From: Paraspadella gotoi
Taxonomy: Eukaryota; Animalia; Chaetognatha
DNA length: 64,000 nt
NCBI GenBank assembly: GCA_051294375.1
Contig: JBJCIZ010000028.1
Span: 2,025,053-2,089,052, forward strand
Direction of reading: 5' to 3'
Position 1 is the first letter of the stretch. Every line of letters starts with the position of its first letter. The notes under the pieces were generated by a model. The model ran no database searches, was not told the origin of the DNA, and worked only from the letters and a program-made list of their open reading frames with translations. Position numbers and translations under genes: made by a program. Below, one piece after another: positions 6,224 to 60,730 of this stretch.

Positions 6224-6265
<42 letters not shown>

Positions 6266-9200
6266 AAGAGAGAGAAGAACAAGAGAGAGTGCAGAAGAAT
6301 CTTATCTTTGAGCCCGCGAGACTACGTTCCAAGCTTCGTCAATCCAACAAAAAAGTGTATCGACAAGAGTTCACAGAAACACATTTTATTTGAAAAACAC
6401 ACAAAACACACAAAACACGGTAGCAGAAACTCGTAGAAACGAAGTTCGAACGGACGATTTAAAAGTTCATGATTCGATCCAGAAAATCGAATGAAATTAA
6501 TCGAGAAATTAAGGACGCGTTCATGTGAAACTGGAGATAAAGATATATCTTATGCTCTCTCTCTCTTCTCTCTATATATATATATAGAGAGAGAGAGAGA
6601 GAAAAGCCGAAACGTTCTTTTATTCAAGAGAAGACAGAGAGAGAGAGAGAGGAGGAGAGAGAGAGAACAAGAAGAAAGAAAAAGAAGAGGAAAGAGGGAA
6701 GAGAGAGAAAGAGAGAGAGAGAAGAGAGAGAACAAGAGAAAAAAAGAGAGAAAGAGAAGAGAGAGCACGAGAAGAAGAACAGTGAAAAATGAAGCTGATA
6801 GAGAGAAAAGAGAGAGAGGCGAAAGAGAGATAGGGCTCATATCAGAATAAATTTTTATTACAAATGATACTGGTATTGCTGCAGTATTAACTTGTTCATG
6901 CGTTAAAAATTTTGTAGTAATAATTTTTTTTACATTACTACTTGTTACTTAGAGATAACTTTTTGTCTCCGATTTTTTTATTTGAGAAATCCATAAATCG
7001 AGACTCTCAAACATACCACAGTGCCACAAAAAACATTTTGAATTGATCATTGTAAAACTTTTGCAGGAATGCAAATATTTAAGTAATTGAATTCTAATCA
7101 TTCGGCGTGGAACACTGACTCAATGGTTTTCGTTTGCTTCCCATACTATGGTTTTAGCAAACTTAACGACAATCCATAAGATTGAAATATCCTTAACGTT
7201 CCTTCTGCTTAAATAATAGAAACAATTTTGTCAAACATTTAGCGTGTGGGAGGATCATTTGGCGGGGGATTAAGATTCAAGCTCAGAACCTGTACCCAGT
7301 GTACATCTGATGATTCATTACGAGCAGAACAACGTGTTATCGAAGTATGGATTGTTTTCAGTGACAAGTGAAGCATTTCTATGATCAACGTGACGATGGA
7401 ACTTATTCAAGTTATGAAATAGGTTTAAAAAAGTTTAATTGTACATTATCAATCGGTCAATTTTGCTCCAAATAGCGCCTAACACATCGAGTTATGTCAG
7501 GGGTGGGACCTTTAATCGAGACAAAACATAACGTTCTGTCTGTCTAAAGATTGGATACAAATAAAAACATGTTTGAGCAAACAATGTCGGATCTGCCCAC
7601 GATCATTATCGTAATTAAATTAATTATAATTAATATAATTAACGATTAATTAATTCAAGTTAATTAATTAATTAATAGTCATTCTTTAATTAACTTGATC
7701 CAAATTTTGTTTTCATTGGATTAATTGACTGATTTTAATAATTGATTAATTAATTGACTAATTATTATATTTGACTAATTGATTAAGTTAACTGATTACT
7801 TATTTATCTAATTTATACTCTTGAATTTACATTTAATATAAACAGAAATTAAGAAGCATAATCATTAGTGAAAACAGGTTTTTTGTTTTTTTTCATTAAA
7901 CTCATTTACTCAAAAAACGATTCATCGAAACTGTGATTTCACACTTAATCAACATCTTCCACCGACATACAAATTTCAGGTCAATTGCCCATCTCACTCA
8001 TGAGTAATTGGTGTTAAATATAAGATAGTATTTTTTGGTTTTTATCCATTTACAACCTCATCTGTTCACTTCTTGTGTAACGCATTCTTATCGACACTTC
8101 ATTGATCTCGCTTCTTATAACGTTCACTACGCGGAGCCTCCTGATTACACAGACGGAGGAGAGACACATCACGAAGAGAGGTGATCAATGGTCGCAAATG
8201 CGCAGAATAAACGACATGGAAGGAAAGAGCACGAAAACGATGAAACGTGTGTTATTTGTAGGTTAGTAAGGAGAGAGAAGGCGTATGGAATAGTATTGTC
8301 GAAAAACATTTGAGGTCGTTTTATGTATTGGTATTAGGAGCAGATAAAGCATACATTGTTAAGATGAAGATGTTTACAGTGGTCGATGTTCTGAGAAATA
8401 GGTGATAGTGGGGTAATGGTGTCTTGATGCTATATTTTTCAATTACACTTCGCTGATGTTTATCGATTGATATATCACTGGTCTGTCCTGAAGTTCTAAC
8501 AACTATTGTAGAATTTTCTTCAGGTAGAATTTTATGGAAGCATTAATATGGAATTTACAGGGATGGACTTCAACGAATATGTCATTGATCTACATTGAAA
8601 AATAACTGTATAAGTATTTCTTACCATCTTTGATGCTTTTGGAGGGGATTGCATTTCAGAAAAATTACATACATGATTATATTTATCTGATATGTATAGT
8701 ATATGTTACGCAAATTTTCATTATAGATTAGCAGTATGTATGATAAGTGAGAGGATAAATTAAATTCCATAAGTCGAGGGCGATCTTTACCAACATCCGG
8801 TCTACCTTATCGGCCTAATTACGCCACTTCCTCTCTTTAGGCTCATTTACTTCGAGCCGTTCTAAATATACGTCACGCACGAGTTCACTTTGACCTCTAA
8901 CAAAAGCTACGTTTTTAAGCAACTGGACATTAGAAAGAAAGAGGATTAACTAGGAAACACGAGTATAGGGAAGCGCCGGAGACGAGGCCGATAAAGGATC
9001 AATGTGCTGGTCCGAGTTAAAAAGCAGGATGATAAAACATGTGGAATATTAGGAAGACGCTAGAACTACAGCTTTCGTAATTGTATCAAGTAATTCTTAT
9101 TTTCATCGTTCTCTACATTTATTTCTTCTTCACAATGGCATCTTCTAACCACTTTAATATTACTGATTGTCGTCTTATCTACATTTGGTGATATACCCAG

Positions 9201-11789
9201 ACTAAAAGATAAAGTACTTCTGAAACACTACATTATTACAACTGATTGATTGATTTATGATTGATTGATCCTATGGAGTGATTCTGATCGATTATTTTTA
9301 TTTTATTCATTCGTAAATTGGGGCGGTTTTAATTAGCGATAAAAAATCGCCGCTCAGTTTCAGGCCTACTTGTTCCGATCAGTTTATATTCTTTTTTTGG
9401 CGCATTTTTCTTCAAGTAGTTTTCAACTTCAAAATTAAACTCGATTTTTCGCAATTTCTATGTTCTCTTCTCAGTCGCAGCGGATCCACATTTCGTCCAC
9501 ATTTCGTCTCGTCACCTGGATTACCTCATCAAAGTCAAGTTTTATTCTTTTCTTATTAGGCGTTTATCAAGATTTCCCTTTTGCCTTATTTTTGCAAAAT
9601 TTGAAATACAATACTAACCTCAATCAATTTTTTATCCCGTTTTTGAAAACATCTTATATTTAGCTTCAAGTTTAAGTAATTTTCTTTAAATATTAACTTA
9701 CGGTATTGGTGAAACGACCGTCTCGCCAGCGGCGTTTTTATTTAACCGGCCGTTTAAAGAGGAAAGGTCAATATTCAGCATAGACAATGCGTAATCTTTG
9801 ATGTATTAGTAAGCTAATACATATCGAGAAATACATTATAGTCATTCATAATCAAAAAAAATAAGTTTAATTTATATGTTAAACATTCTGTTTTCATCAT
9901 CTTTCTTTTAACATCGGTAAATAACAAATTGTTAGGAGGCTTAAATGCGGTAAGGCACATTTTTCTTATAAGAATTTGTTCTCTTCAATCTGTTTGTTAA
10001 AAATCGTGGGTAACAAGTTAAACACACAGGTAAGGCAAAATTTAGAAGGGTGGGAATTTAAACCAATTATCTTGTTACTGTACTACATTGCCGAGGAAGA
10101 CGACCTCTGATGGTTGTGCCAGTCATAAAAAGCAACGGCAAGACTGGCTTCAGTACACCATAGAGGGTACACATAGCGAAATTTGAGCTTACTAGGAGTC
10201 TCTCTGAATTTGAAGAGTTGCAGCCTAAACGACTGCTATTACATATTGATTTAAAAATTTTGATACTATCTTAAACATTGTAAAAATGTAATAGAAGAGA
10301 CATTTGTAATGCGTTCCAGTTATGAAAAATTAGGGTTTAAAGTTTTAAAAATGTTTCATTTTTCAATGATAAACAAGTTGAAATTTAAAAATGTCTCTCT
10401 ATTCATTTTTCGATTCACTAATAAAAAAAGTTCATAAAAAATACTCAGATGGATTTGGCCTCTTTTCGTTTTGTGCGCACTCTTCAGATAGGTTTCTTTT
10501 TTTTATATTATAATAAAAGCCCGATATTAAATGGCGTGATGCATCATTTTAAAGTGGAATAACATTTTTTCGGAATCGGCAGGAGGTCAGCTTTCTGATT
10601 TGTACTCCATTTTGGCCTATTTTGGAAGTTGAGTTGAATGACCTTTTCTTAAGAAAAAGTTTTTCAGAAAATTTTGCTAGCTCTATTTTTTTAAAAGCGA
10701 TTACGCAAAATTTTTCTTTCGGATTTTTCNNNNNNNNNNNNNNNNNNNNNNNNNCACCTCAGACTCCTGCCGCGCCATCTCTGCTTTCCTGCTGCTGCTG
10801 TAGTAATCCATCTCGGTCTTGATCAGAGACTCGGTCGATTTCTTGAGACGAGACTCCAGCTTCTGTCGATCCTTTGGTGGAGCGGGCGAGGAGCTGGGGG
10901 AGTTGCGGCTTGAGCGTTAGAGGAGAGCGATGATTTAAAGGAGAAAACAATTTTTTTTTAGTTTAAGCAATCACTGGTAATCAGGTGATCACAAATGCAA
11001 TGTATACTAAAATTACTATGCTGTGACGTTTTATTTGTAAGCGCTCACTTGTACCAATAATATTGCACCAGTAATCAGTAATAAAATACATAATAAGTTT
11101 TTGCACTGAAACTAGTCGTTAGCTAAAATTATACCGTATAACCAACCAACCAAGCAAAAATATTGATTTTAAATTTTGTAGAATTTGTTACACGTTTTAG
11201 CATCTAATTCAATCAATCACTCTGTGAATGGATGTATAAAAAAATTAAATCGAATGAAATGAAATGAAATGAAATGAAATGAAATGAAATGCAAGTAAGT
11301 CAGTCAAGTCAAGTCAAGTCAAGTCAAGTCAAGTCAGTCAAGTCAAGTCAAGTAAGTCAAAGTCAAGTCAAGTCAAGTCAAGTCAAGTCAAATGAAACTC
11401 ACCCCATCCACCGCCCTCTTCCGCTTCTCCGCCTCCCCACGCCGCAGCCCGCCGCTCTCTTCGGCCTTGGCCTCTTCGCATCGCCGCTCCGCCGCCGCCG
11501 ACGCCGCAGAGCCGTCCTCCGACTCGATCTCTTCCTCTATCCTCGTCTGAGTCTCGATAGGATTTGGTCCGGGCGAAATGATTTCGTCTCCGAATCCAGT
11601 GGGCGACGAGTTTGTGATCGAGGATTCGATGTGGGTTTGGGGGTGTGTGTGGGGGTGTTTATGTGTGGGGAAGGAATTGTGTGTGGAGGGGAAAGGAAAA
11701 GGTGAGAAAGGAGGGGAAAAGAAACAAAAGAGATAGGAGAGAGAGGGAGGGAGGGTGAGAGAGAGAGATCAGAGAAGGAGAGAGGGAAT

Positions 11790-11831
<42 letters not shown>

Positions 11832-14800
11832 AAGAGAGAGAAGAACAAGAGAGAGTGCAGAAGAATCTTATCTTTGAGCCCGCGAGACTACGTTCCAAGC
11901 TTCGTCAATCCAACAAAAAAGTGTATCGACAAGAGTTCACAGAAACACATTTTATTTGAAAAACACACAAAACACACAAAACACGGTAGCAGAAACTCGT
12001 AGAAACGAAGTTCGAACGGACGATTTAAAAGTTCATGATTCGATCCAGAAAATCGAATGAAATTAATCGAGAAATTAAGGACGCGTTCATGTGAAACTGG
12101 AGATAAAGATATATCTTATGCTCTCTCTCTCTTCTCTCTATATATATATATAGAGAGAGAGAGAGAGAAAAGCCGAAACGTTCTTTTATTCAAGAGAAGA
12201 CAGAGAGAGAGAGAGAGGAGGAGAGAGAGAGAACAAGAAGAAAGAAAAAGAAGAGGAAAGAGGGAAGAGAGAGAAAGAGAGAGAGAGAAGAGAGAGAACA
12301 AGAGAAAAAAAGAGAGAAAGAGAAGAGAGAGCACGAGAAGAAGAACAGTGAAAAATGAAGCTGATAGAGAGAGAGAGAGAGAGAGAGCGAAAGAGAGATA
12401 GGGCTCATATCAATAAATTTATTACAATATGATTACTGGTATTGCTGCAGCTATTAACTCTGTTCATGCGTTAAAAATTTTGTAGTAATATTTTACATAC
12501 TACGTTGGTTACTATAGGAATAACTTTTTGTCTCCGATTTTTTTTATTTGAGAAATTCCATAAATACGAACTTCTCAAATCATACCACATGCCAAAACAA
12601 TTTTGAATTGATCATTGTAAAACTTTTGCAGAATGCAAATATTTAAGTAATTGAATTCTAATCATTCGGCGTGGAACACTGACTCAATGGTTTTCGTTTG
12701 CTTCCCATACTATGGTTTTAGCAAACTTAACGACAATCCATAAGATTGAAATATCCTTAACGTTCCTTCTGCTTAAATAATAGAAACAATTTTGTCAAAC
12801 ATTTAGCGTGTGGGAGGATCATTTGGCGGGGGATTAAGATTCAAGCTCAGAACCTGTACCCAGTGTACATCTGATGATTCATTACGAGCAGAACAACGTG
12901 TTATCGAAGTATGGATTGTTTTCAGTGACAAGTGAAGCATTTCTATGATCAACGTGACGATGGAACTTATTCAAGTTATGAAATAGGTTTAAAAAAGTTT
13001 AATTGTACATTATCAATCGGTCAATTTTGCTCCAAATAGCGCCTAACACATCGAGTTATGTCAGGGGTGGGACCTTTAATCGAGACAAAACATAACGTTC
13101 TGTCTGTCTAAAGATTGGATACAAATAAAAACATGTTTGAGCAAACAATGTCGGATCTGCCCACGATCATTATCGTAATTAAATTAATTATAATTAATAT
13201 AATTAACGATTAATTAATTCAAGTTAATTAATTAATTAATAGTCATTCTTTAATTAACTTGATCCAAATTTTGTTTTCATTGGATTAATTGACTGATTTT
13301 AATAATTGATTAATTAATTGACTAATTATTATATTTGACTAATTGATTAAGTTAACTGATTACTTATTTATCTAATTTATACTCTTGAATTTACATTTAA
13401 TATAAACAGAAATTAAGAAGCATAATCATTAGTGAAAACAGGTTTTTTGTTTTTTTTCATTAAACTCATTTACTCAAAAAACGATTCATCGAAACTGTGA
13501 TTTCACACTTAATCAACATCTTCCACCGACATACAAATTTCAGGTCAATTGCCCATCTCACTCATGAGTAATTGGTGTTAAATATAAGATAGTATTTTTT
13601 GGTTTTTATCCATTTACAACCTCATCTGTTCACTTCTTGTGTAACGCATTCTTATCGACACTTCATTGATCTCGCTTCTTATAACGTTCACTACGCGGAG
13701 CCTCCTGATTACACAGACGGAGGAGAGACACATCACGAAGAGAGGTGATCAATGGTCGCAAATGCGCAGAATAAACGACATGGAAGGAAAGAGCACGAAA
13801 ACGATGAAACGTGTGTTATTTGTAGGTTAGTAAGGAGAGAGAAGGCGTATGGAATAGTATTGTCGAAAAACATTTGAGGTCGTTTTATGTATTGGTATTA
13901 GGAGCAGATAAAGCATACATTGTTAAGATGAAGATGTTTACAGTGGTCGATGTTCTGAGAAATAGGTGATAGTGGGGTAATGGTGTCTTGATGCTATATT
14001 TTTCAATTACACTTCGCTGATGTTTATCGATTGATATATCACTGGTCTGTCCTGAAGTTCTAACAACTATTGTAGAATTTTCTTCAGGTAGAATTTTATG
14101 GAAGCATTAATATGGAATTTACAGGGATGGACTTCAACGAATATGTCATTGATCTACATTGAAAAATAACTGTATAAGTATTTCTTACCATCTTTGATGC
14201 TTTTGGAGGGGATTGCATTTCAGAAAAATTACATACATGATTATATTTATCTGATATGTATAGTATATGTTACGCAAATTTTCATTATAGATTAGCAGTA
14301 TGTATGATAAGTGAGAGGATAAATTAAATTCCATAAGTCGAGGGCGATCTTTACCAACATCCGGTCTACCTTATCGGCCTAATTACGCCACTTCCTCTCT
14401 TTAGGCTCATTTACTTCGAGCCGTTCTAAATATACGTCACGCACGAGTTCACTTTGACCTCTAACAAAAGCTACGTTTTTAAGCAACTGGACATTAGAAA
14501 GAAAGAGGATTAACTAGGAAACACGAGTATAGGGAAGCGCCGGAGACGAGGCCGATAAAGGATCAATGTGCTGGTCCGAGTTAAAAAGCAGGATGATAAA
14601 ACATGTGGAATATTAGGAAGACGCTAGAACTACAGCTTTCGTAATTGTATCAAGTAATTCTTATTTTCATCGTTCTCTACATTTATTTCTTCTTCACAAT
14701 GGCATCTTCTAACCACTTTAATATTACTGATTGTCGTCTTATCTACATTTGGTGATATACCCAGACTAAAAGATAAAGTACTTCTGAAACACTACATTAT

Positions 14801-35300: not shown

Positions 35301-38300
35301 TTCCTTAGATGGAATAAATACATATTTATAATCGTGATTTACAACTATTTGTACAAATTTAGTAAACAGGGCCTTTTGTCGGTGTACAAATTCAAAAACT
35401 AAAAATTAATAAATATTATAAATTAAACTAGAACAACTAAAAGTTCCACAAAAATCGGGGATTTTTCTTGTACGCTTTTTGCGCAAAGCAAAGAACAAAA
35501 AGCTTTAGTACGAAACCAAATTCGCAAAATCGCGAGAAAAAAAAAGGAACATTCAAGTCGTAAATGGGGAAAAAATGATCGATCAATATGGGGCAATTCT
35601 TTTAATCATATTAGTTATTTGCATATACAATCGCTCAAACTCACGGTGGTCTTGAGACAGCTTATCCTGAGTAGGGTGGGATGTACTTCTAGAGGCCCGA
35701 AACAGGTGACGGGCGGAGATTGGCCGTCTTTATCGGCGGCCGAGAGTTGATCCGCCGAGGGAAGAGGGTCTTGAAGGAGGCGTTGCGCTGGGAGGAGAAA
35801 CTCGACCCGTTTCGTTCTCTGATCGTGTTCACATTTTGATGACGATGTTTTTGGGGATGTATTTCCATTTCACGGGTTCCCGATCCTTTCCACACGAGGC
35901 TTTGGTTGCTCGAGATCGTGTGAATTGGCGCGATCGATGCTTGTCGTCATGTTCTTTTATGAATTAGTCACGGATTGTTCAACATCGCGTTTAGCATTAT
36001 GAGTACCCAAAAAATTGTTTTGTTGATGGTTAACGTAAGAAACTTCTTTTTCTGAAATAAAAATATTCTTTCAAATAGATTTTTTTTTTCAGAAAAAATA
36101 GATTCATTCAACTATGATTACAAAAATGTTTTAAAAAACAAAGCTTGGTTTTAAGAAAAGCGTCACATTTAAAACACCAAAAGATGTGAAAATGAAAAAT
36201 TCAAAAATCTTAAGTATTTTCGTAATATTTATACCTCATTTTTAACGAAGTTAAAAAAACAAAACGACAAATCTTGGATGCGTTTTTAAATGAGATGAAG
36301 TCTGCGATTAAACGGTATCGTCCAAAGTGCAAAATAGTTTAGTTAGTGCGGCGAGAGAATGATCAAGTCCTTAAATTTCTCTCTACTTCCAGGTATTCTA
36401 AACCAGACGAAAAAAAGGTAAGACGAAAGGGGCGATAGAAGTAATCCGAATACATTCATTCGGGTCGGTCAGTCATTTCAGCGAAGGTCTTCTTCTATCA
36501 TCTTCGGCCCTCATTTCTTGCGGCTCTCCATTGGTACAGCTGCGTCAGATCAACTCCCGATGTTCTTCTTCCAGATCAGTACGATCCGTTCGCCCATGTC
36601 GTCGATCCGAGAGATTGATCTGATCCGAATCTGCTGGAACCGTTCTGCATCTGACCAGCAAGTGCCACGAGGCGTAGATCTTGATGTTTTTCGCGGTCCG
36701 CCGAGGCGGGGGACGTGATGCTTCGTGTCGGACATTTTTTTATTATTAGCGACAAAATATATCTTAATATTCAAGTGTCACGAGGACGCGTTTGTTTGAT
36801 CGCTTAATTTATTGAATATTAAGGACTGCATTATCGGTGAGAACAAAACTTACTAGAAAAATATTATTTGATTTTAATTTTGTTTTCTTTTCTTTTTGGT
36901 TGTTTGTTGTTTTTTTTCTATTTAAAGAGGTTTCAACTTAAAATCGAATGTTTTTTTTTCTTAAATATAAATGTTTTCTTTCTCTTCCTTTCAATTTCTC
37001 ACAATACTTCCCCCACACACACACAAATGTATCAACCCTGCTCTCCACCGGTGCCTCTCTCGCCCTTTGGCGAATTCAAGCATCTCATTCCTGTCGGCGA
37101 TGTCCCTTCGCCGAGATACGGTCACAGTGGATGGAGTTTCGAAGGGAAACTTTATTTCTTAGGAGGACTCGGCCCAAAAGGAGAAGGAGGCGATTTGGTG
37201 GAGATGACACTACGACCGGGAATGTTTTTAAACAATCAGTTGATTCAATTCGATCCAGAGAATAATTGTTTTTCTCTTTTCCCTACAAAAGGTCAACCGC
37301 CTTCCCCTCGAATCTTTTTTGCTGAAGCTCGATTGAAAGAAAATGTTTACATTCATGGCGGATGGGGTAATAAAGTTCTTAATGATTTCCACTTTTTGAA
37401 CATGAAGAGTCAAAGTTGGTCATCGCTGACATTTGGTCTTCCTGCTGCCATTTGCCATCACACCCTCTCCCCCATCTCAGCCTCTCAACTCGTCCTGGTT
37501 GGCGGCCTAACTTCTTCCGGTCCATCAAAAAAAATATTCGTTTTCGACGTCAAAGACTCGAGTTTTACAAAAGTTCAGAATCTTCCTTCCGAATTCTGCG
37601 GCGACGATGAAGGGTTGTTTGCTCATCGCGCGATCGTCGTCACGAAAGAAAAGCGAGCGACGGGTCTTATCTGCGTCGGAGGATATCTTGATGGCAATAA
37701 TAACAAACATCCAAATCACATCATCAAATTCGATCTTTAACTTTCTGGTGCAATTCCTTTACGTTGGCAAATCCAAAAATGAGAGTGTACAGGAGAGATT
37801 CAACTGGGTTAACATTGGTTTAAGTATATTATAAAAAAACTAACATTTATTAGAAATTTAGAATACAAAATCTTTTGATCTCATAACTGTTTGACAAATC
37901 AATTTTGTAACGTTTGTAATGTTGGTATCTTTGTATTCTTTTAATAAATCAGTTAATCATTAACATTTGTAATGCAAAGTAACGTCAAAAGTAATAAACA
38001 GTTTTACAGTTAATTTTAATTTAATTTTAATTTGTCAGCATATAGTTAATTAAACATGCGGCTATTACTTAACTTATTTACAATATTTTTTTCATTCAGG
38101 GAGAGAGAGAGAGAGAGAGAAAAAAAGAGAAAACAAGAGAGTAAAAACAAGAGAGTGAAAGAGAGAAAGAGAGAAATAAAGAGACACATTTGATTTGATT
38201 GGTAATGCTTAAAAATGTGACGGCCAACACAATAAATATTTTTACAGAGCAGTACATAAATTTATGTTCAAACGAAAAGTATTAAGTCTACATAATTTAC

Positions 38301-39898: not shown

Positions 39899-40760
39899 AT
39901 TTGAATTTGAATTTATTCAATGGGGATTTAGGCACAAAATAATACAATAGGCCATAAAAAGCTACTTCATTACATTTAAGTCTACGAATTTAGGCATTCA
40001 TCATGAAATCTTTCCAATTTACAATTTATGCATGTATTTTCCCTTTGTAAATAATCCCATCCCAACACTGTTGGGATCGGCTAGAACCAAATTCCGNNNN
40101 NNNNNNTTTTCAATCCCCGTACAGCAAAGTTTTTAACATAGTCATATAATATAACCAATCAATGTTCGCTGATGGCACGTTGTTCATAATTGACATTTAT
40201 AATTTTTCGTAATTAAATTTCACCACGCTATAATCCTGAGGTTTTAACCTTTTAACGTCTCCTCCTCCTCCTCCTCCTCCCTCCGCCTCCTCGCACATCC
40301 TCCTCAACTTGGAGGATATCCTGGCGAGCGACTTGGCGTAATGAAGCTGAAGGTCGACCCTCTCTTGAAGGAGAGCCGAGGCGTCGCGGGTGAAGTCCGA
40401 GTTGGTCTTCAGGACGCGGAGGAGAACCTCGAGGCCGGGGGTGGAGCCTGTCCCGGGGGGGGGTAGGATAGGGTGGTTCGGATAGGGGATTGGGATTAGG
40501 ATAGTGATTAGGATAGGGATTAGGATTGTGTGAGATGGTCAGAGTGAAAAATGGTATCAAGGTTATGACGATTGAGAATTTAAGTACATACATATGAAAC
40601 GAGCAATTATAAATTAATCTTGGATCAATGAGTGGATCTATCAGTCCTTCTATAAATCAATCAATAAATAAATCAATCAATCATCACCTGAATTTGCCCA
40701 AAACGAATCCCGAAAGGGAAAGGCGACTAGAGACTCTGACTCTGTTGATGACGACGCCAT
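3051..40760 (-). CDS. NOSTRIN: Nostrin-like F-BAR (FCH) + HR1 protein, multi-exon gene span; the C-terminal SH3 exon was not seen
   Basis: Spliced exons with compatible phases give MASSSTESESLVAFPFRDSFWANSGSTPGLEVLLRVLKTNSDFTRDASALLQERVDLQLHYAKSLARISSKL (FCH N-terminus), ...LIKTEMDYYSSSRKAEMARQESE|SAHLAAASSLHVLESARV...DIDGTVRRRGTG (F-BAR C-terminus) and RRRQNL...DLAAEEAAK...LLKAY...WLRATLRKI...DKTGTMQWTMRIP (HR1/REM-like). The order matches invertebrate Nostrin as recalled; no search run. Confidence 0.75.
3991..4246 (-). CDS. Nostrin-like exon, F-BAR C-terminal helix
   Basis: Acceptor TTCAG, open frame SAHLAAASSLHVLESARVSAVAAAHRKYAAFL...DIDGTVRRRGTGGAAAELLLP (part of ORF 3914..4309), donor GTTTGT. 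Confidence 0.7.
5151..5330 (-). CDS. Nostrin-like exon (consensus KDRQKLESRLKKSTESLIKTEMDYYSSSRKAEMARQESE); second copy ~10759-10930
   Basis: Consensus of two indel-containing copies; donor GTGAG, phase 0, joins the 4246 exon in frame. The 5' boundary is approximate. Confidence 0.65.
5657..5829 (+). repeat. Compound (GAAAT/CAAAT)n-(CAAGT)n microsatellite; homologue at 11253-11394
   Basis: Directly visible. Confidence 0.9.
5837..6063 (-). CDS. Nostrin-like coiled-coil exon, frameshifted as assembled; further copies at ~11403-11629 and 17493-17723
   Basis: GC-rich island ending ...AAAERRCEEAKAEE...GEAEKRKRAVDG followed by donor GTGAGT; acceptor CACAG is intact in the third copy. Confidence 0.55.
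16319..17480 (+). repeat. (CAAAT)n pentanucleotide microsatellite, degenerate, ~1.1 kb
   Basis: Directly visible aaatc repeats. Confidence 0.95.
17481..19090 (+). repeat. Third, more diverged partial copy of the 5825-7460 segment
   Basis: Collinear similarity from atgaaactcaccc to ttgtacattatcaatc, with a shorter (AG)-rich tract and a 202-bp insertion. Confidence 0.9.
18596..18797 (+). mobile_element. tRNA-containing fixed-end element, copy 1 (internal deletion), TSD ATAC
   Basis: atac|TATGGTGG...GTCTCTTCA|atac; absent at the homologous sites ~7165 and ~12730. Confidence 0.9.
19426..20643 (+). CDS. Putative DZIP3/hRUL138-type HEPN domain + coiled coil + poly-Asp + Pro/Gln-rich region; probably a first exon, 5' part frameshifted
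   Basis: ORF 19608..20729 contains GDVSFF...SDLLRDKRNAISHDDGSGIDDEECYELF (R-x4-H). Upstream NHSRL..AILIDG(T)LMYKSLF needs indel correction. Donor CTG|GTAAGG at 20643. Confidence 0.6.
20920..22940 (+). repeat. 16-bp minisatellite (TGCAAATTCATTCCTG)n, ~2 kb
   Basis: Directly visible; it explains the CKFIPVQIHSCANSFL pseudo-ORFs in all frames. Confidence 0.95.
22985..23222 (+). repeat. Degenerate (GGTTAG/TTAGGG)-like tract; similar tract at 20866-20896
   Basis: gcttagggttaaaggttaggaacttagggtttaaggttaggg. Confidence 0.7.
27355..28560 (+). pseudogene. Indel-rich copy of the kelch ORF 3' half and its downstream flank (37455-38250)
   Basis: cacaccctttccccatctcagcctctcaactcgtcctgg, gcggcgacgatgaagg, gtcggaggatatct and ggcaatccaaaaatgag match 37455-37790, with many insertions. 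Confidence 0.75.
32400..33500 (-). pseudogene. Possible WD40-repeat gene exons in error-rich sequence
   Basis: Minus-strand reading KVLDFQFLVDSGLAVSLSVRDGSGVVW, then (frame-corrected) EVRT, a donor GTATAT, and CISDLVT in the next GC-rich block. This resembles a WD40 blade; the frames are broken. Confidence 0.35.
37027..37740 (+). CDS. Kelch-repeat protein (KLHDC1/2-like, C-terminal blades), antisense within the Nostrin-like intron
   Basis: PSPRYGHSGWSFEGKLYFLGG, PPSPR...VYIHGGWGNKVLNDFHFLN, HHTLSPISASQLVLVGG, AHRAIVV...LICVGG: about 4 kelch blades, stop TAA at 37740. The start may be an ATG or an exon boundary. Confidence 0.85.
   Translation: MYQPCSPPVPLSPFGEFKHLIPVGDVPSPRYGHSGWSFEGKLYFLGGLGPKGEGGDLVEMTLRPGMFLNNQLIQFDPENNCFSLFPTKGQPPSPRIFFAEARLKENVYIHGGWGNKVLNDFHFLNMKSQSWSSLTFGLPAAICHHTLSPISASQLVLVGGLTSSGPSKKIFVFDVKDSSFTKVQNLPSEFCGDDEGLFAHRAIVVTKEKRATGLICVGGYLDGNNNKHPNHIIKFDL
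38554..39114 (-). CDS. Probable Nostrin-like exon(s) 3, interrupted by an N gap
   Basis: Acceptor CCTCAG in matching phase (SIGDAATGNDDDAAADASEQDA...), GC-rich, donor GTGAGG. The end reads GWRVVAQQMR only if two 1-nt indels are corrected. Confidence 0.5.
40249..40447 (-). CDS. Nostrin-like exon 2 (GSTPGLEVLLRVLKTNSDFTRDASALLQERVDLQLHYAKSLARISSKLRRMCEEAEGGG...DVK)
   Basis: Acceptor GACAG, open frame continuing exon 1, ER-x-D-x4-YAK-x-L FCH motif, donor GTTAAA. Confidence 0.8.
40688..40760 (-). CDS. Nostrin-like exon 1 (MASSSTESESLVAFPFRDSFWANS-G)
   Basis: ATG at 40760, 73 nt (phase 1), donor GTGATG; F-x-D-S-F-W FCH signature. Confidence 0.8.
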
Positions 40761-42204: not shown

Positions 42205-42330
42205 CAGGGACCTGCTTTGTCATTATCTTGTAAGAGTGATGGAGGCCTTGAACCACCAAAGCCTGTCACAGGTAACCCGGCTAATGCCATAGTTTAATTT
42301 TTATATTGGACGGACCAATTTCATATTGTA
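42205..42330 (+). repeat. Second short dispersed repeat family; copies at ~48680-48820 (reverse) and ~50060-50185
   Basis: Shared core cttgtaagagtgatggaggcctt(g/a)aaccaccaaagcctgtc and downstream tttttatattgg...accaatttcata. Confidence 0.75.
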
Positions 42331-42409: not shown

Positions 42410-45400
42410 TTACAGCATCCAAATGACAAAAATCCATCCGGGAATGAAAATTAAAACCAACATCAAAAAATAAGGATAATTATTTGAATACGCGATCTCC
42501 ACTCGCTCCACAAATTCATTGACAAAAGCCGAGGCGTTGAAATTTTTCATTTTCCGAATAAAATTCGTTCCTCTTTCCAATTTACAACATCTAGCCACAT
42601 TTCGTAGTACATTGGCGTGGTTATATATTTCAGATACTATATCGGCGTCGTACGCAGTGATGTGGGTAAAAGTTAAGAATAAGTACCCGATAGTTTTCGT
42701 AGTTTCGTGTTCGATTTCTGTCATATGTCGGTGACATAATTTATAAGTAAAGTGATAGACGACACATCCGGAGAATATTGAGAATAATTTAAAAGAGATC
42801 CTAAATTTGTAACGTTCTATTGAAGGAAGGAAACAATTGGCCAAAAAATAAAGCGATGGAATTACGGAGCAACATAATATTACGAATCCGTAATCCTTTG
42901 AAAAAAGATAATAAAGACTTTCCCGAATGAGCGTTCGCATATCGGGGTCTTCATTATCAATGGATCCATTGTAATAATTCGCGCAAGAATTTAACGTCCT
43001 GTTGCATATTTTCAAAAAATGTTTTACGTTAAACCCTGTATTATATAATGGTACCACCTTGAGATTTATCAGAATGAAACCAGCGCAAACCATTCGATAA
43101 ATTGTTTGGACAAAACGACAAAATTTCAGTTTTTTAAAGATTCCAAAAATATTATCCAAGCTGAAGAAAATAAAATTAAACGCGGCGACCACGAATAATT
43201 TTGACATCAAGTTGGAAAATTTGAAAACGAGCCAATGAGAGCCGGGCAGTTTTTTATGGACTCTCGGTGCGTCCGGTTGGAATCGGCGAATTCCGTTATA
43301 AATGAAATAAGTGGTTTCTCGGGAAATGCGTATGCCAGATACGTCCAGCAAATTAATGTGGCGAATCGAATAATACAGATTCAAATAGATTAAAATCATT
43401 GCAGTTATCATCGGTAGTAATGACAGGCACATTTTTTTAAATCTTCTGATCAATAGTAGATACAGAATAGAGTAAAAAATGTTTAATGTTAAACTAATAA
43501 ACAGGGCAACGAGTTGTAGTCTAACATCCAAGTTTATTAGAAGATAATTTCCCAGAAAAACTATAATTTTTGGTTGTAAATCGTAATAATTATAAAGTTT
43601 GCAATCTTTCGAAGTAGCGTTGAAAGTTGGGTAGAATGAAAACCATAAATGATTCCAGGTGCTAATAATGTAGAACACGTCCCAATTTGTACTAAAACTA
43701 AATTTTTTTTATAATAAAAAACATTTTTAAAATGGCCGCTATCAAAGAAGGGGTCGCCGGACTTTATGGAGTGAGTTAAATATTTATACTTTTTTTCAGA
43801 AAACATTCAATAAAAAAAATATCTAATATGGCTCTAAACCCCAGTTATTATTTTTAAAATATTTATTTGTTGATAGAAAAGACAAAACATTTTTGGGATA
43901 ACTTTGAATTTTTAATACCAGATTCTGATGACTTATAAAAAGTTGTCCAAATAAAAAATAATTCTTTCTTAATATTTTGATAATAAGTGGCTCAAAAATA
44001 GGAAAAACTATAAAAAATTAACCTCATCATTATCTTTTGATGATTTTATCAGTTTTTTTTAAATTTGAAAAAACGTTGACATTTTAAAAAGTTGTAATTA
44101 TATTTTTTTCGACTTTTTATTCTCTACCAGAATCCATAATGAAATTATAGGATTAAAAAAAAAGTGATCTACCATAGGAAATTTCTGGCACATAAATTTC
44201 AGTTGCTTAGTCTTATGATCACTCAGAAATACAGTAGATAAAAAAAACATATTGCCTAGAAGATCATTTGAATTACCTAAAATAAGTTTTAAAGAGACAG
44301 TAATTATTGATAAGTGTTAATGACAGAACCGTTCAATATAAGCAGTCCCTGAGCTTCGGATCAGGCTGTAACACCATGTTACAGGCGGGTTAAGCGCCCC
44401 GTCCCTCTTAACTGCTAGGCGGCTACCGGGCTAGAACCCCGGACCTTTGGGTTGGGAGGCGAATGACTTGCCTCCGGCACCAATGGCCACTGATGAACGG
44501 TTGGTGGATTTTAGTCCACCATAGTTTTAATTTTTTAAGTCATTTTTGGGACGTGATCAAAAAATACCGAGTATCTACAAATCGACCCTCAGTGAGCAAA
44601 CAAAAATCCCGATTGTTTCCCAATACATTGTAAAAAGAAATCTTTGGCAAATCAATCATTTTCAAGCGACGCATTCCCCAATTTACTTTTACTTTATTCG
44701 CAATGTAATAATCTACTTTCACCGCGAAGAAAAATGAACACAACAAAAAATTCATCAAATGCTGAGCGACGATTTGGAATAAAAAGTTTTTGGATGATCG
44801 ATCGAAGGAAATTAAATCACGATTTGATCTTCCTTTTGTCATAATCATCCTTGATATTTCCCTCAATTCAGGTAAAGTACACACTCTAAATATTATAAAA
44901 ATTGCCACAATACCAAACCAGGGATGAAAGTAAACAATTTTAGTGAAAATCATCATGATGCAGATCGAAAGGCCGCAAATCGCCTGCGCGAATCCAAAAA
45001 CGTAACTCGAGAGACGCAAAGGTTTGGCCGCCTTTTGGAAAGTTGAGTGTCGCCGATCCATTGCGAATTTGCCCAAGCTGATAGTTGAGAACGCCACAGA
45101 TACGATGGTCGGGATTTCCTGTCCCACGTTCCAAGTGCATCTGTGACCGTCATAGGCGATTTCTCCCCAACCCAACAACAATTGAAAGCAATTGCAGGTT
45201 TTGTTTCCAATTTGTTTTAGAATTCCATTCTTATTCTCGTAAATGTTTCCTTTTACGCTCAAAGTGAGCAAATTTCCCATATCGTCCAAACCGGGGACGC
45301 AAATTCGATCCGTTTCTGACGTCCAGATCAAAACTGTGGCCAGAGTCTGAAGGAGGAGTTGGGGGTAAGACTCCAAGAGAACGTGCAGAATTTTGAGTCG

Positions 45401-46853
45401 TTCCAACAAAAACTCTTTTGCTTGAAAACGTTCCGCTGACAATAATGAACATGGAAGTATATTAGTATTTAGGTCAAGTCATTTTTTTTTCTTGTATTTC
45501 TATTTTTTCTTTTTTACCTTTCTTTCTTAGCTTTTCACTTATGGTGGACTAAAATCCACCAACCGTTCATCAGCGGCCATTGGTGCCGGAGGCAAGACAT
45601 TCGCCTCCGAACCCAAAGGTCCGGGGTTCTAGCCCGGTGGTCGTCTGGCAGTTAAGAGGGACGGGGCGCTTAACCTGCCTGTCTCTTCACACTATTATTA
45701 ATTTACTTGAATTGTAAGGAAAGAAGCGCACAGGTCCAAAAATGGAATATTATTGGAATATTTTTTCTTATTAACATATTTTACCGCTTTTAAGATAATC
45801 CACCGACGTTTTGTCCAAAGACAGATCCACCATTGCAGGAACGACTCCCAGTCCAAGCGAAAATAATCCGCTCGTCATATAAATTCGTTTGCGATTGCTG
45901 AGGAGTCGTGGAAAGAGTTCCTAGTACAACAAATCGTGATGAAGTTGGCCAGATTAAGTTAATTTTTGTTGTTTTTTTTAATTTTAACTTTAAAATAATA
46001 TGAATTGTAAAAATAATTTACAACTGATTCAACAAAAATAACAAAAATCATAATATGCAAACACCTTAATTAACAAGTGAAGATTTTGAAGAATGGTGGT
46101 TTTTTTACACAACTGCTTTCAGACACAAATATTGAAAATCAACGCAATATATAGTACCATATGAAGAGACAGTAACAATTGTTATATGTTAGTGACAGAA
46201 CCCTGAGCTTCGGATCAGGCTGTAACACCGTGTTACAGGCGGGTTAAACGCCCCGTCCCTCTTAACTGCTAGGCGACCACCGGGCTAGAACCCCGGACAT
46301 TTGGGTTGGGAGTCGAATGATTTGCCGCCAGCACCAATGGCTGTTGATGAACGATTGATGGATTTTAGTCTACCATACATATAAAATATTAAACTATTAA
46401 CCTTGGAGAGCGGTAATTGAAACCAGAGGCAAGTCATTTGCCTTCCAGCCCAAATGTCCGCGTTTTTACCTTCGAGCAGCTAATTTTGACCGACTGCTAA
46501 ACCGGCTTGTTCCGTGATGCTACAGCCCGATCCCAAGCTCAAGGATCGCTCTAATATGAGCGATTGACTCATTAATATTGCTAATATTGTCTCTACAATA
46601 ATTAAAATTGAATATTTCATGAAAAGCCGGGTTCACCGATCAAATGAATTACCTTGTTCCTCTTCAGGAAGATGTAACCGTGAATTGTGGACACGACACA
46701 GTGAACCATCAGGGTGACGGTCAAGACTCCGGCTAAAATAAGCAATTTGCGTGACTCACTGTGCAAAAACGAGTGAATCGTCCTGACGTCGGTGATCACG
46801 TCCAAAAGCGTGATGCCAACGTTCACAATCAACGCGAGAAGCGAGAGAACCAT
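42410..46853 (-). CDS. XK-related (XKR scramblase family) multi-pass membrane protein; exons 46853-46653, 45920-45785, 45435-~44569, ~43760-42410
   Basis: Exon 1 has LLDVITD (XK DxxTD motif) and exon 3 has HVLLESYPQLLLQ (XK LESxPQLxLQ). GT-AG boundaries and phases (0, 1) are consistent for exons 1-3. The join to exon 4 is uncertain. Confidence 0.75.
44290..44523 (-). mobile_element. tRNA-containing fixed-end element, copy 2 (234 bp), TSD GTTT on + strand
   Basis: gttt|TAAAGAGACAG...GTCCACCATA|gttt. Confidence 0.9.
45540..45689 (+). mobile_element. tRNA-containing fixed-end element, copy 3 (150 bp, internally deleted), TSD CACT
   Basis: cact|TATGGTGG...GCCTGTCTCTTCA|cact; the deletion joins two CTGT motifs. 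Confidence 0.9.
46162..46377 (-). mobile_element. tRNA-containing fixed-end element, copy 4 (216 bp), TSD CATA
   Basis: cata|TGAAGAGACAG...GTCTACCATA|cata. Confidence 0.9.
46423..46562 (+). mobile_element. Old diverged relic related to the 234-bp element
   Basis: gaggcaagtcatttgccttccagcccaaatgtcc and tacagcccgatcccaagctcaagga align to the element core; the ends are not recognisable. Confidence 0.6.
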
Positions 46854-47021
46854 GTCTCAAAAAAGAAATTTTGACTTAAAAATGATATCTAATTATAAAT
46901 ATTGGATCAAGTTTATTAATCTTGTGTTGTACAGATGATCTCTCAATATTCAGAAAAAAACGCTGGCCTCCCTCTACAAATATTTAAAATTTAATTGTTA
47001 GAATCTTGTTTTTTAACAAAG

Positions 47022-47255
47022 TGAAGAGACGGTAATTATTGTTACGTGTTAGTGATAGAACCGTTCAATATAAGCAGTCCCTGAGCTTCGGATCAGGCTG
47101 TAACACCATGTAACAGGCGTGTTAAGCGCCCCGTCCCACCTAACTGCCAGAGGACCACCTGGCTAGAACCCCGGACCTTTGGGTTGGGAGGCGACTGACT
47201 TGCCTCCGGCACCAATGGCCGCTGATGAACGGTTGGTGGATTTTTGTCCACCATA
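47022..47255 (-). mobile_element. tRNA-containing fixed-end element, copy 5 (234 bp), TSD AAAG
   Basis: aaag|TGAAGAGACGG...GTCCACCATA|aaag. Confidence 0.9.
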
Positions 47256-48318
47256 AAAGTTAATTATTTTGATAAAATTATAACTATATTTTCATATGTT
47301 TAAAAGAAAAATTTTTAAAAGTATGGTAAAACATTTTGTAACTTTGAGATAAAAATTAGAATCTATAGATATAGAACAGAGAAGAACGGAGAGCTGAAAG
47401 TGCGACTACATCAATGGCAATAATAGAGAGCGAGAGTGAGAGCGAGAGAGAGGGATGGAGTGGCAGCTCGAATGTCAACTTCCTCATAATCTGTCATTAT
47501 TCTCGATACATAAAATTAACAAGTCAAGACAACCTTGGTGAAAATGTCAGAGTCATTATTCGCGTCCATCTTGATTGCGCGTTTAAAATGTCACGAATCG
47601 CGATTTTGTGCCACTTTCTTGGTTTTTTGTGCCACTTTTTTGCCACTTTTTTGTGCCACTTTCTTGGTTTTTTATCGCGAAAGGGAGAAAAGTGTGAAAT
47701 TTTTTGGTTTATGTTAAAAAAGTAAAAATATTGCATAAAGAGTACACTATGGCAACCGCCGGGTTGTCCTTGATGCCCATTGGGATGAGGCATCTGTTGG
47801 CTTTGGGGGATTCCGACCCTCAGTAACGCCTTCTGTCACTGGTGCGGTTACCCTAGGACGGTCTCGCTTTGCCAACGCAGAGAGAAGTTGAGAAGCTTTA
47901 TCTAGATTTTAATACAAATAAAAATAACAACCTTTACAACTTCCAATAGTAAAAATTTCCAATTGTAAACAATTGTAATAATTTTTTTGTCTTTTTTTTA
48001 TTTTGTCGCTGCCTTTTCTGATTTGTCATAATTTTTCGTTTTTATGTTTTATATTTTTTGTTTTTGTTTTTGCTTCCATTTTTTACTTGACGTTTCTCGG
48101 TTTTTTACTGTTTCTGGTTTTTATGATTTTGACATTTGATCCTTGAACGGTTTTGAACGTTATTTTTTATAGTTTCTTATGAATTAGTTCTTAATTTAAA
48201 AAAATAATAATACTTGGGAGATACAGTTCCGAGTTTTTTACATTATTATTGATGCTGTTACTGTTCTTGTATTCAATTGTGTTACGATTACTATTACTAT
48301 TACTACTTTTGTTATTAA

Positions 48319-48376
<58 letters not shown>

Positions 48377-49055
48377 CCTTTGAATATAAATACGTAAGGC
48401 GAACTGTATTCGCGACATTGCATTCATTAAATATCTAATATTACAATTTATATTTACTAAAACAAAACTGTTTTGTCGTCTTTTGTTTCCTTTTGCTCCA
48501 ATTTTGGGGTCAGGATAAAACTCGGCCGACACTGAGGTCAAAGGCGTCGCCAAAGATAACATTCCTTTAAAATCCGACTCTGAAACTCAACCGCCCTACA
48601 ATAACAACAATGACCCGCATGAGACAGAAAACCTTCTTTTTGAGTTGACAAGTACGTACATACTATTTCAATAGTTTCAATTGCACGATATTGGTACAAT
48701 CAAGAGCAAAAATTATCCATTCATTAAATACATAAGCTCTCTGGTACTACTATTACTTTGGACAGGCTTTGGTGGTTTAAGGCCTCCATCACTCTTACAA
48801 GATAATGACAAAGCGGGTTTTGATATTCATTCCCAGAGAACCTGGCTTCATTATTATCAATGAAAGAGTATAATGTTTCAAGAACAATGTAGAATGTAGA
48901 TTGTATTGAAACCACGTTTTATGTTCTATCACTGAACAATTTAAATTAATAAAATAAGCAGATGGCGACTCTGTTGGCCGTTGGATTCTTCACCGAGTAA
49001 GAGGTTCCGGATTCCGCCCAGTCAACTTCGAAATGGGACGTCAGAAATTAAAAGA

Positions 49056-49104
<49 letters not shown>

Positions 49105-49291
49105 ACTTTAATTTTCCTTACGTCGTGACCAAAAAAAAATAATTGTAATTTTGGCAATTCTTGCTCCTTGTCTACGTAAAAAATTGAAATTTGTTTTAAC
49201 AGCAATGAAATGAATATAAACAAATGAATTCAATATTCCTATATTTAAATTAAACTACCTCTATTATTACAAACGATTATTTTATCACAGG

Positions 49292-52200
49292 ATGACTAAA
49301 TTAGTTGCCTCGCTACTCGTGTCCTGTTGGATTTTCGTTCTGTCGCAGAAGAGCAACGGGAAAATTATCGGTACGTTTTAACAAAGTTGGTAAAATATTT
49401 TAATTTAAATATAAATTGCATTATTGTGTATAAGTGGAATTGTTTTATTTATTACGTTTGAAAAATTCCGGTTCTATTTTAAAGCTTTCAATATAGTCAA
49501 AATTTTATTTCCAAGTAAATAATATTTGCCATTGTTGTTAACTTAAGAAACTCCATTTTCGTTTTATATAAAATGGTCACAACAAATATAAAAATTATTC
49601 ATTCAACAAATATGCTATCTTGTTTGAGCTGCCTCGACTTTCTGGCTGACTTTCAAGATGGCGACGATCTTGGTTTCAAATGTAGTTTGTTTATTACAAA
49701 TTCGAGGTTAAACAGTTCATAATTAAGTCGATAATTAAGTCCATAAAATCATGAAAAAGTCCTTTAAATTATAAACAAACGGTCTTAAACAAAAGGTCTT
49801 ACAACCGTACGACGTCGGAGGCAACTGCCCCTGACTCTTAAACAATTCTTTACGTTAAAAAATAATCGGGATATCCCGAGTTCACGTTTCTTCATCGTCT
49901 TCATAATCGTCGTCGCGTTCTCTCTCTCTCGAGAAACTGGGCAAAGTAAGACGCAGATATCGAATCCACGGCCGTCGGACGTCGAGCCACTTTTCTTCCT
50001 CTTCGGTCACGACCACACGCAGCCACGACTGGGAGTGAATTCTTGATTTAAAAGTGTAGTGTAAGAGTGACGTAGCCTTTTAACCATCAAAGCCTGTTCA
50101 AAGTCAGGGAAAAGATAACTTATTTATCAAATTTTATTTTTTGAATTAATCATTTTTATATTGGGTGTACCAATTTCATAGCAGTCGAGTTATTTAACTC
50201 CCGGAATCCCTGGATTTCCCATCAATCAAGCGACATAACAGTATGGCGGACTAAAATCCTCCAACCGTTCATCAGCGGCCATTGGTGCCGGAGGCAAGTC
50301 ATTCGCCTCAACACCCAAAGGTCCGGGGTTCTAGCCCGGTGGTCGCCTAGTAGTTAAGAGCGACGGGGCGCTTAACCCGCCTATTACACGGTGTTACAGC
50401 CTGATCCGAAGTTCAGGGACTGCTTATATTGAACGGTTCTATCACTAACACATAACAATAATTACTGTCTCTTCAACGGTTTAATAAACCGTTGCAATTG
50501 TATAAAACGATCATATATATATTTTATAGTTTTAATATTTTTTCTTTTCAACAGTAACCAAAATCGAAGATGCTTGTAACTATGGGCGATATAACTTCAT
50601 CGATTCAACTCCATTGTTTCCTTGTTGTCCTCTTCTCTCATGGATGAAGAGAAAGAATCTCGGTCACGTGAAATCTTTAATGGAAAGATGTTCCCCGAAT
50701 CGAGTCAGTTGCTCCGACGGGCAGATCTCTTGCCCGACTATGAAGGGACCCGCCTGTGAGATGCGGTGCGTAAACGGCTATCGTCATCACAGGTGATCAT
50801 TTAGAATTGGATAATAAACGAGTAACTGAGTTTTGTTGAGCGTGTTCCATTTTGGTTTTCAGTTGCTCTGCGGAACAACTCAAAAAGTCTGTCTGGTTTT
50901 TCTGTCTCACTTAGGTTAAAAATGCTATAACTTAATCAATTTAGTTCATATTTGGCATGAAAGTAAAGGTAATATAAGGCCTTTAATATGCGTATATATC
51001 ATACTTGCGAAGTCACGTGATAATTAAAAATTCGATGCTCTTTTGTTTTTTTCGTTGATACGGAAAGAATCTCGAACGTGAGCGACAGCTAGCGCTTCCT
51101 TTTTAAATATATATATATACATATTTTACAAATAATGATACATTGCGTCATTTAAAGTTATTGTGGTTATGTAAATTGAAGTTTTTCATGTGATGATATT
51201 ACTCTCATTTATTGTCATTTACTTTTTCGTGAGAAAAAAAAGGTAACTCATAGTTAAAATAGAATACTAAAAAAAAACGCGCGCAGCCATTTTTTTCTTT
51301 TTCAATTCATTAGCCTTAGTTATTATATTTTCAATATATATCATTGAGTATTATATCTTGTTCATGTATATTTTCATATATATACTTGTATTATATCTTG
51401 TTATATAATTTCAATCATATATCTTTGTTATTATACTTCTTCATATATATCTGTTATTATTAGTCTTTGTTATTATATTCTTTCATCATATAGGAGTCTC
51501 TGTTAATTATTCTCTTGTTATTCATAATTTTCACTATATAGGTCCTTGTTATTATATTGTTCATATATTTATCTTGCTTATTGTATATCTTGTTATTATA
51601 TTTTTCCATATATATATGCTTGTCTAGTTGATGATCGCTTGATTATTCTATACGTTTGTGCATAATATATCGTCTGCGTTATTTATAAATCTTTTCATAT
51701 CGTATATTAGTCTTGTTATCATATCCTTGTTTTCTATATATTTGTTTCATATTTATAATCTTGTTATCTATAGCTCTTGTTATTTATATATCATATATAT
51801 CTTGTTATTCATACTTTCTTTTCATAGTATATTTGTATTATATTTGTATTCATAATTTTCATAAATATACTCTTGTTATTCATATTTATCACTATCATAT
51901 GCTATGTTATTAAGTATCTTGCTTATATATTCTTCATAATATACATGCTTGTCTTATTATATCTGTTATTCATATTTTCATATATCATCTTGTTATTAAT
52001 AATTTTCATATATATCTTCTGTTCACACTATATCTTGGTTATGTAATATTTTCCATATATATCTTGTAATGTATATCTTGTATATTATATTTTCATATAT
52101 ATCTTGTTATTATGTCTTGTTATTAATTTTCAGTTATATAAATCTTGTTAATATATCTTATGTTATTATAGGTGTTGGGGCTCATATAGTATCTTTGTAT

Positions 52201-58270: not shown

Positions 58271-60730
<2,460 letters not shown>

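Follow-up and report, generated by a model that had tools for sequence, protein, structure and literature searches.

What kind of mobile element carries a tRNA-like part in its interior, has fixed ends, and is flanked by duplications of four bases? The question is raised by a 234-bp repeat in 64,000 nucleotides of the chaetognath Paraspadella gotoi (contig JBJCIZ010000028.1, positions 2,025,053 to 2,089,052 of the forward strand; the whole stretch is called the window below). A first-pass annotation, made from the sequence alone, had placed the repeat among neither short interspersed nuclear elements (SINEs) nor miniature inverted-repeat transposable elements (MITEs). [quoted passage not shown] Our analysis favors the former, and we give a probability of about 0.6 to the reading that the repeat is a solo LTR left by a miniature LTR retrotransposon of Helenus type (TRIMp3). 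It would then add a new and very abundant family to a group published in 2024 and would not be a new class, since its size, tRNA-like boxes, unfoldable cloverleaf, and 4-bp target-site duplication (TSD) match those of Helenus TRIM solo LTRs; this makes it less new than the annotation had implied (PMC10886601).

Copies were located by blastn of one element copy against the window, which returned six copies and one weak relative:
44290-44523, minus strand: full-length copy, 234 bp; AAAC duplication; last bases TTTA; starts 17 bp beyond the stop codon of an XK-like open reading frame (ORF)
47022-47255, minus strand: full-length copy, 234 bp; CTTT duplication; ends backed by read contigs
50242-50475, plus strand: full-length copy, 234 bp; ACAG/ACGG flanks with one mismatch
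45540-45689, plus strand: 150-bp copy with an 84-bp internal deletion at a short microhomology; CACT duplication
46162-46377, minus strand: 216-bp copy with an 18-bp internal deletion; TATG duplication; located at or within the 5′ end of the older relative
18596-18797, plus strand: 202-bp copy with a 3′ internal deletion; ATAC duplication; paralogous empty sites near 7161-7169 and 12725-12733
About 46380-46597, plus strand: older, diverged relative of the element, identical in 143 of 213 columns (~67%); ends GTCTCTACA

The search confirmed the six copies in both orientations, with shared termini and three of exactly 234 bp, that the annotation had reported between 44290 and 50475; five lie in that interval and the ATAC copy at 18596 lies outside it. 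All six begin with TATGG, five finish with CTTCA and one with CTTTA, and the three full-length copies differ among themselves at 19-21 positions. The three short copies carry different internal deletions, each at a short microhomology, and each keeps both ends. Flanking 4-mers are perfectly duplicated in five of the six copies, as had been claimed, and at least five perfect 4-mers in six would arise by chance with P ~5e-10 (background 0.0098 per 4-mer in these flanks). Neither a tail nor a TTTT run is present in any of the six window copies, and no terminal inverted repeat was found in them (5 of 15 terminal bases match), likewise in agreement with the annotation. At 18596, the filled site minus the element and minus one 4-mer equals the length of its two empty paralogs. 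These paralogs are only ~80% identical, so the comparison lends moderate support to duplication at insertion, and it is compatible with both a 4-bp and a 5-bp duplication. The empty sites derive from 5.5-kb duplicated segments, a tandem pair (5148-10729 and 10755-16293) that shows 100% identity across kilobases, has gaps of 25 N at its borders, and is probably an assembly artefact or a haplotype copy; a third, diverged copy of the segment occupies 17482-19101.

A family-wide picture was obtained from contigs of four public sequencing runs from the same organism, of which 8214, 2000, 780, and 1616 per run aligned to the copy at 47022-47255. Among the matches listed, contigs left the element mainly at 47022 (72, 41, 22, and 35 per run) and at 47255/47256 (140, 77, 35, and 63 per run), a few left it elsewhere, and the flanks beyond the exit points were unrelated AT-rich DNA (agreement 0.42-0.49). 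In all four runs the modal flank was CTAT or ATAT on both sides of the element. A terminal A was common to the exiting contigs and the fifth flank base on the opposite side was mixed, which sets the duplication at 4 bp; the 5-bp alternative left open in the annotation is thereby disfavored, and copy 45540 breaks the pattern on which it was based. The family is clearly very abundant: summed depth within the element reached ~2.5 million, compared with ~100 in unique DNA of one run, although depth is not copy number. Single contigs contained head-to-tail element pairs, one with exactly 4 nt between the units, and private internal deletions were numerous. Insertions were found in AT-rich introns and gene flanks. 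No empty allele was seen among the 15 joints listed, out of 56, for contigs on 43900-50900. Minor variants in the contigs on 47022-47255 were often C-to-T or G-to-A at CpG sites, a pattern that suggests that element copies may be methylated in the host.

The interior of the element, numbered in the tRNA sense and exemplified by the first copy listed, comprises the following parts:
Element 3-22 (44502-44521, minus strand): 5′ terminal hairpin of 7 bp
Element 34-105 (44419-44490, minus strand): tRNA-like module, with a box-A-like sequence at 44471-44482, a T-arm with GGTTC at 44426-44442, and an acceptor-like stem
Element 108-183 (44341-44416, minus strand): twister-like module of putative function, with a P5 closing stem, GA+CGG at 44399-44403, TAA at 44390-44392, GC at 44385-44386, a P3 hairpin, and P4
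44353-44360, minus strand: loop TCCGAAGC of P4 in the twister-like module

A leader of 33 nt that includes the hairpin precedes the tRNA-like module. The annotation's tRNA-like unit was sustained in part: the acceptor-like stem (5-7 pairs) and the 5-bp T-arm both pair, but the D and anticodon stems are unpaired, ARAGORN called no tRNA in the element, and Rfam likewise gave none there and only chance matches across the region. GGTTC is found in all young copies except one that has adjacent changes, and box A is imperfect, reading TGGTG..CGG where Helenus has TRGCY..YGG. An inverted repeat of 9 bp encloses the tRNA-like and second modules, and the whole element folds mildly better than shuffled sequences (z = -1.89).

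[quoted passage not shown] In animals, Helenus elements have 4-bp TSDs and Gypsy-like primer sites, keep GGTTC, and have a tRNA judged non-functional; their LTRs measure 104-323 bp, and for eight of the animal families no internal portion is given (PMC10886601). The Paraspadella repeat has box A (imperfect) and box B of a tRNA-derived sequence within an LTR-sized unit of 234 bp, TA...CA termini, and a 4-bp TSD that is perfect in five copies, has one mismatch in the sixth, and recurs in the modal contig flanks. The LTRs of five wasp families begin with TATAAC and finish with CA, and those of five bivalve families begin with TGTGGT (PMC10886601), one base off the element's TATGGT. A solo LTR or TRIM with a tRNA-type Pol III promoter is thus retained from the annotation as the best explanation; its TG...TA ends are an antisense view of what reads TA...CA in the tRNA sense.

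Several observations weigh against this assignment, and we regard Helenus membership as probable but unproven. None of the six window copies has a two-LTR form; all are single units, a state that agrees with solo LTRs without proving them. Neither a primer site nor a purine tract was seen, and the modal contig flanks show no TGG-type primer site, which is a weak test because any internal region common to the copies would be assembled into only a few contigs. Matches to reverse transcriptase or integrase numbered zero among the 19 window ORFs scanned, and no autonomous partner was found there. The internal deletions in three of six copies would also fit a DNA transposon. Box B reads GTTCTA and departs from the GTTCRA consensus. 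Most animal Helenus LTRs have a short inverted repeat at their ends that the element does not show, and ~130 bp without a T-run follow the element's tRNA part, unlike in most of the Helenus LTRs examined (PMC10886601). A motif search of the supplement of that paper, in which line breaks can hide matches, gave no close match to a published Helenus: four of six diagnostic element words were absent, one occurred once in an unrelated LTR, and one occurred in seven fish families, within the tRNA part.

The ends, the 4-bp TSD with its ATAT-like preference, the abundance, and the tRNA-like boxes were observed directly; the steps that follow are modeled on PMC10886601, where mobilization of Helenus by Gypsy elements is itself inferred and the use of the tRNA-like boxes for Pol III transcription is putative. 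The parent would have two LTRs and, in the short interval between them, a primer site and a purine tract; it would be transcribed from the tRNA-type Pol III promoter, and its RNA would be primed by a host tRNA. A Gypsy partner acting in trans would reverse-transcribe this RNA and integrate the product at ATAT-like sites with a stagger of 4 bp, and LTR-LTR recombination would then reduce the parent to a single LTR between matching 4-mers. The twister-like fold would be a degenerate or incidental structure that is not needed for transposition.

That fold, which like the diverged seventh relative goes beyond the annotation's account, consists of GA-CGG, a 6-nt linker, UAA, CCC, GC, an 8-bp hairpin, a 5-bp stem with loop UCCGAAGC, and a 6-bp closing stem. 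The order of these blocks is that of the type-P5 twister layout (Table 1 of PMC8501958; PMC5408937). The core blocks of that type (UAA, the GC of T2, the UCCnAAGC loop, GA with the T1 triple, and P4) are complete in three of the six copies, and T1 is paired at 3/3 positions in all five young copies that retain the module. A descriptor taken from the same table, and written after the element sequence had been seen, matched 3 of 20,000 dinucleotide shuffles and, in the 64-kb window, only three element copies. Controls came from a metagenome scan with a 15-letter pattern, which gave 119 loci; we had considered these as relatives of the element and rejected them, because the best match of 21 bp was at the level of chance, and reused them as controls. 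Among 116 unrelated control loci sharing the P4/L4 word, UAA..GC was present in five and a T1 partner in none. Fourteen prokaryote-genome matches and two viral matches to element words were also taken as chance. Of 120 viral loci with an element-like pattern, two had P2 and P4 fully paired, and both exceeded the Rfam P5 threshold:
L357:297-350, plus strand: phage type-P5 twister with a 3-bp P2 and a CCG/CGG pseudoknot, above the Rfam threshold
L291:297-355, plus strand: phage type-P5 twister with a 3-bp P2 and a CCG/CGG pseudoknot, above the Rfam threshold

The two phage twisters indicate that the GACGG/UCCG swap with a 3-nt P2 is natural. Other comparisons were less favorable. Rfam RF02684 gave no twister match in the element at E up to 5-10, nor did the Rfam hammerhead models; hammerhead and hepatitis delta virus-like readings were rejected by eye. 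Relative to 22 well-paired phage P5 twisters (20 of 121 loci and 2 of 120 loci), the element has a 6-nt linker where all 22 have a P1 of 15-26 nt with at least 6 bp, and an A-U loop-closing pair where all 22 have G-C; its P2 can pair only with a bulge or with a C-A mismatch. Twisters can do without P1 in vitro; altering the length of P2 in any way may disturb the active site (PMC5408937). Covariance models built from 16 and 21 phage P5 twisters ranked the element copies at the top of the window with 7-18 bits, compared with 31-71 for true twisters, and 7 of 32 motif-matched controls reached 13.7-17.4 bits with the phage-twister model; since the copies did no better than these controls, covariance-model support was dropped. 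Minimum-energy folds prefer a rival hairpin over the twister pairing. In the older relative at 46380-46597 the P4/L4 block is best kept (15/18), T1 and P2 are broken, and the rival hairpin (123-126/135-138) is retained through a two-sided change. The P4 hairpin could instead be a decayed second tRNA T-arm. On balance, the odds of twister ancestry of the module are a little short of even, and present activity as a twister is doubtful.

An active module would make the repeat an animal LTR retrozyme, which we consider unlikely. The same Gypsy-mobilized LTR-type element would carry a P1-less, circularly permuted twister predicted to self-cleave at U132/A133. Where Pol III had read through two LTRs, or through a head-to-tail pair, the ribozyme would divide the transcript into units that would then be circularized; Gypsy reverse transcriptase would copy the circles into solo, full, or multimeric cDNAs, as modeled in plant retrozymes, and integration would occur mostly as single LTR-sized pieces. 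The twister order and core with its 6-bp P5, the conserved T1, the rarity of the descriptor in shuffles and of the T1 partner in controls, the phage twisters with the same swap, and the dispensability of P1 all speak for such an element, as do the head-to-tail pairs in contigs and the 4-bp TSDs and solo LTRs of plant LTR retrozymes (PMC4918200). Set against them are the missing Rfam match, the lack of P1, the A-U closing pair, the flawed P2, bit scores within the range of controls, folds that favor the rival hairpin, an older relative that keeps this hairpin and breaks T1 and P2, the resemblance of P4 to a T-arm, and a post hoc descriptor passed by only three of six copies. Plant LTR retrozymes carry type III hammerheads (Cervera et al., 2016; PMC4918200) and have no evident promoter (PMC7761336), and the animal retrozymes in print are non-LTR, hammerhead-bearing elements with larger TSDs (PMC7229834; 2026 preprint). 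In the accessible parts of the literature, including PMC6765202, PMC10085705, and PMC13725137, we found no description of an LTR or TRIM that carries a twister. By eye, a type III hammerhead core follows the tRNA-like part in two wasp LTRs, Helenus-2_SyJa-LTR and Helenus-2_SyUm-LTR (PMC10886601, Data S1); the available text of that paper does not mention it.

The remaining explanations do without an LTR. A non-autonomous DNA transposon lacking terminal inverted repeats, mobilized by a DDE transposase that cuts with a stagger of 4 bp and carrying a captured SINE fragment as its tRNA-like part, would account for six single units each with its own TSD, for the microhomology deletions in half of the copies and the many private deletions in contigs, and for the 9-bp subterminal inverted repeat and terminal hairpin. 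Yet the 3′ CA, the length, and the TSD fit LTRs, no transposase was found in the 19 window ORFs scanned, and DNA superfamilies with 4-bp TSDs (Ginger, Sola, Academ) carry the terminal inverted repeats that the element does not have. We therefore find little support for this part of the annotation and hold such an origin to be improbable. To our knowledge, Helentron-type elements make no variable TSD. Less probable still is a tRNA SINE of atypical form, which would have a 5′ leader and depend for its movement on a long interspersed nuclear element (LINE) that makes short duplications. It would explain a tRNA head followed by a body, the very high copy number, and the AT-rich intronic and gene-flanking insertions; however, the tRNA part of the repeat is not at the 5′ end, as in SINE2 elements, but behind the 33-nt leader with its hairpin, the 3′ end is fixed and without a tail, the TSD is a constant 4 bp and not variable, and both ends are sharp in four runs. 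The annotation's placement outside both SINEs and MITEs is accordingly upheld, and a solo LTR of Helenus type remains the preferred reading.

Other repeats accompany the element. A second high-copy family with a 5′ hairpin and TATG...CTCTTACA ends occurs at 50060-50180 (minus strand), 42229-42325 (minus strand), and 48755-48815 (plus strand). Its window copies have no tRNA-like part; one is flanked by CTGC/CTAC and another has no matching flanks. The similar ends suggest that the ends of the two families may be read by a shared integrase. Two copies of the second family stay alike for ~15 more bases past CTCTTACA, perhaps because an internal region begins there, and the 5′ part of the older relative at 46380-46597 shares a short AT-rich word with this family. 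A further repeat of very high depth, 47740-47890, starts near a TATGGCA word; contigs run on with other sequence past 47888, so its window copy looks truncated. The genes and gene fragments of the window include the following:
44540-46853, minus strand: XK-like multi-exon membrane-protein gene, which holds four element copies in its introns and flanks
42410-43708, minus strand: large hydrophobic ORF
36841-37740, plus strand: Kelch-repeat gene, KLHDC2-like
27358-27732: degenerate paralog of the Kelch-repeat gene
58448-60700: C2H2 zinc-finger array with an 84-bp period
40200-40538, minus strand: FCH/F-BAR fragment

The XK-like gene and the hydrophobic ORF had no Pfam match and almost no database relatives. 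In protein searches with window genes, identity to the closest relatives did not exceed 43%.

Annotation of a Helenus-like family is worthwhile, since repeats of this sort get taken for SINEs or tRNA genes. Cleavage by the second module would connect Pol III TRIMs with retrozymes. With an active twister, the repeat would be an animal LTR retrozyme driven by a Pol III promoter of its own, extending LTR retrozymes from plants to animals, and the module would represent a natural P1-less permuted twister, new for such elements. Together with the by-eye hammerhead in the two wasp LTRs of PMC10886601, it would imply that TRIMp3 elements have repeatedly recruited self-cleaving ribozymes.

Compared with known systems, the repeat shares with Helenus the tRNA-like sequence in an LTR-sized unit, GGTTC, the non-functional tRNA fold, the 4-bp TSD, the CA 3′ end, the TA 5′ end (five wasp families), solo units, and a high copy number; it is unlike Helenus in occurring only as single units in the window, in its lack of a terminal inverted repeat and of a close sequence match, and in a long structured module with no T-run after the tRNA part (PMC10886601). 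Cassandra and Ajax, the 5S-bearing TRIMs, similarly place a small-RNA-derived Pol III promoter within a TRIM LTR, but use 5S instead of tRNA, and Ajax has 5-bp TSDs (PMC10886601). With type-P5 twisters (RF02684) the second module has in common the block order, UAA, GC, the UCCnAAGC loop, and GA with a complementary T1 triple; it differs from them in having no P1 hairpin, a flawed P2, an A-U loop-closing pair, and no Rfam match. The P3 arms of Schistosoma twisters resemble that of the element by eye, although the Schistosoma T-variants lie at the 5′ end of an RTE LINE and not in an LTR (PMC8501958). Plant LTR retrozymes are, like the repeat, non-coding LTR-type units with 4-bp TSDs, solo LTRs, and Gypsy-type ends, and they carry a ribozyme inside the LTR, which in the element is only possible; the Paraspadella repeat stands apart from them in its animal host, its tRNA-type promoter, and a candidate twister in place of a hammerhead (PMC4918200).

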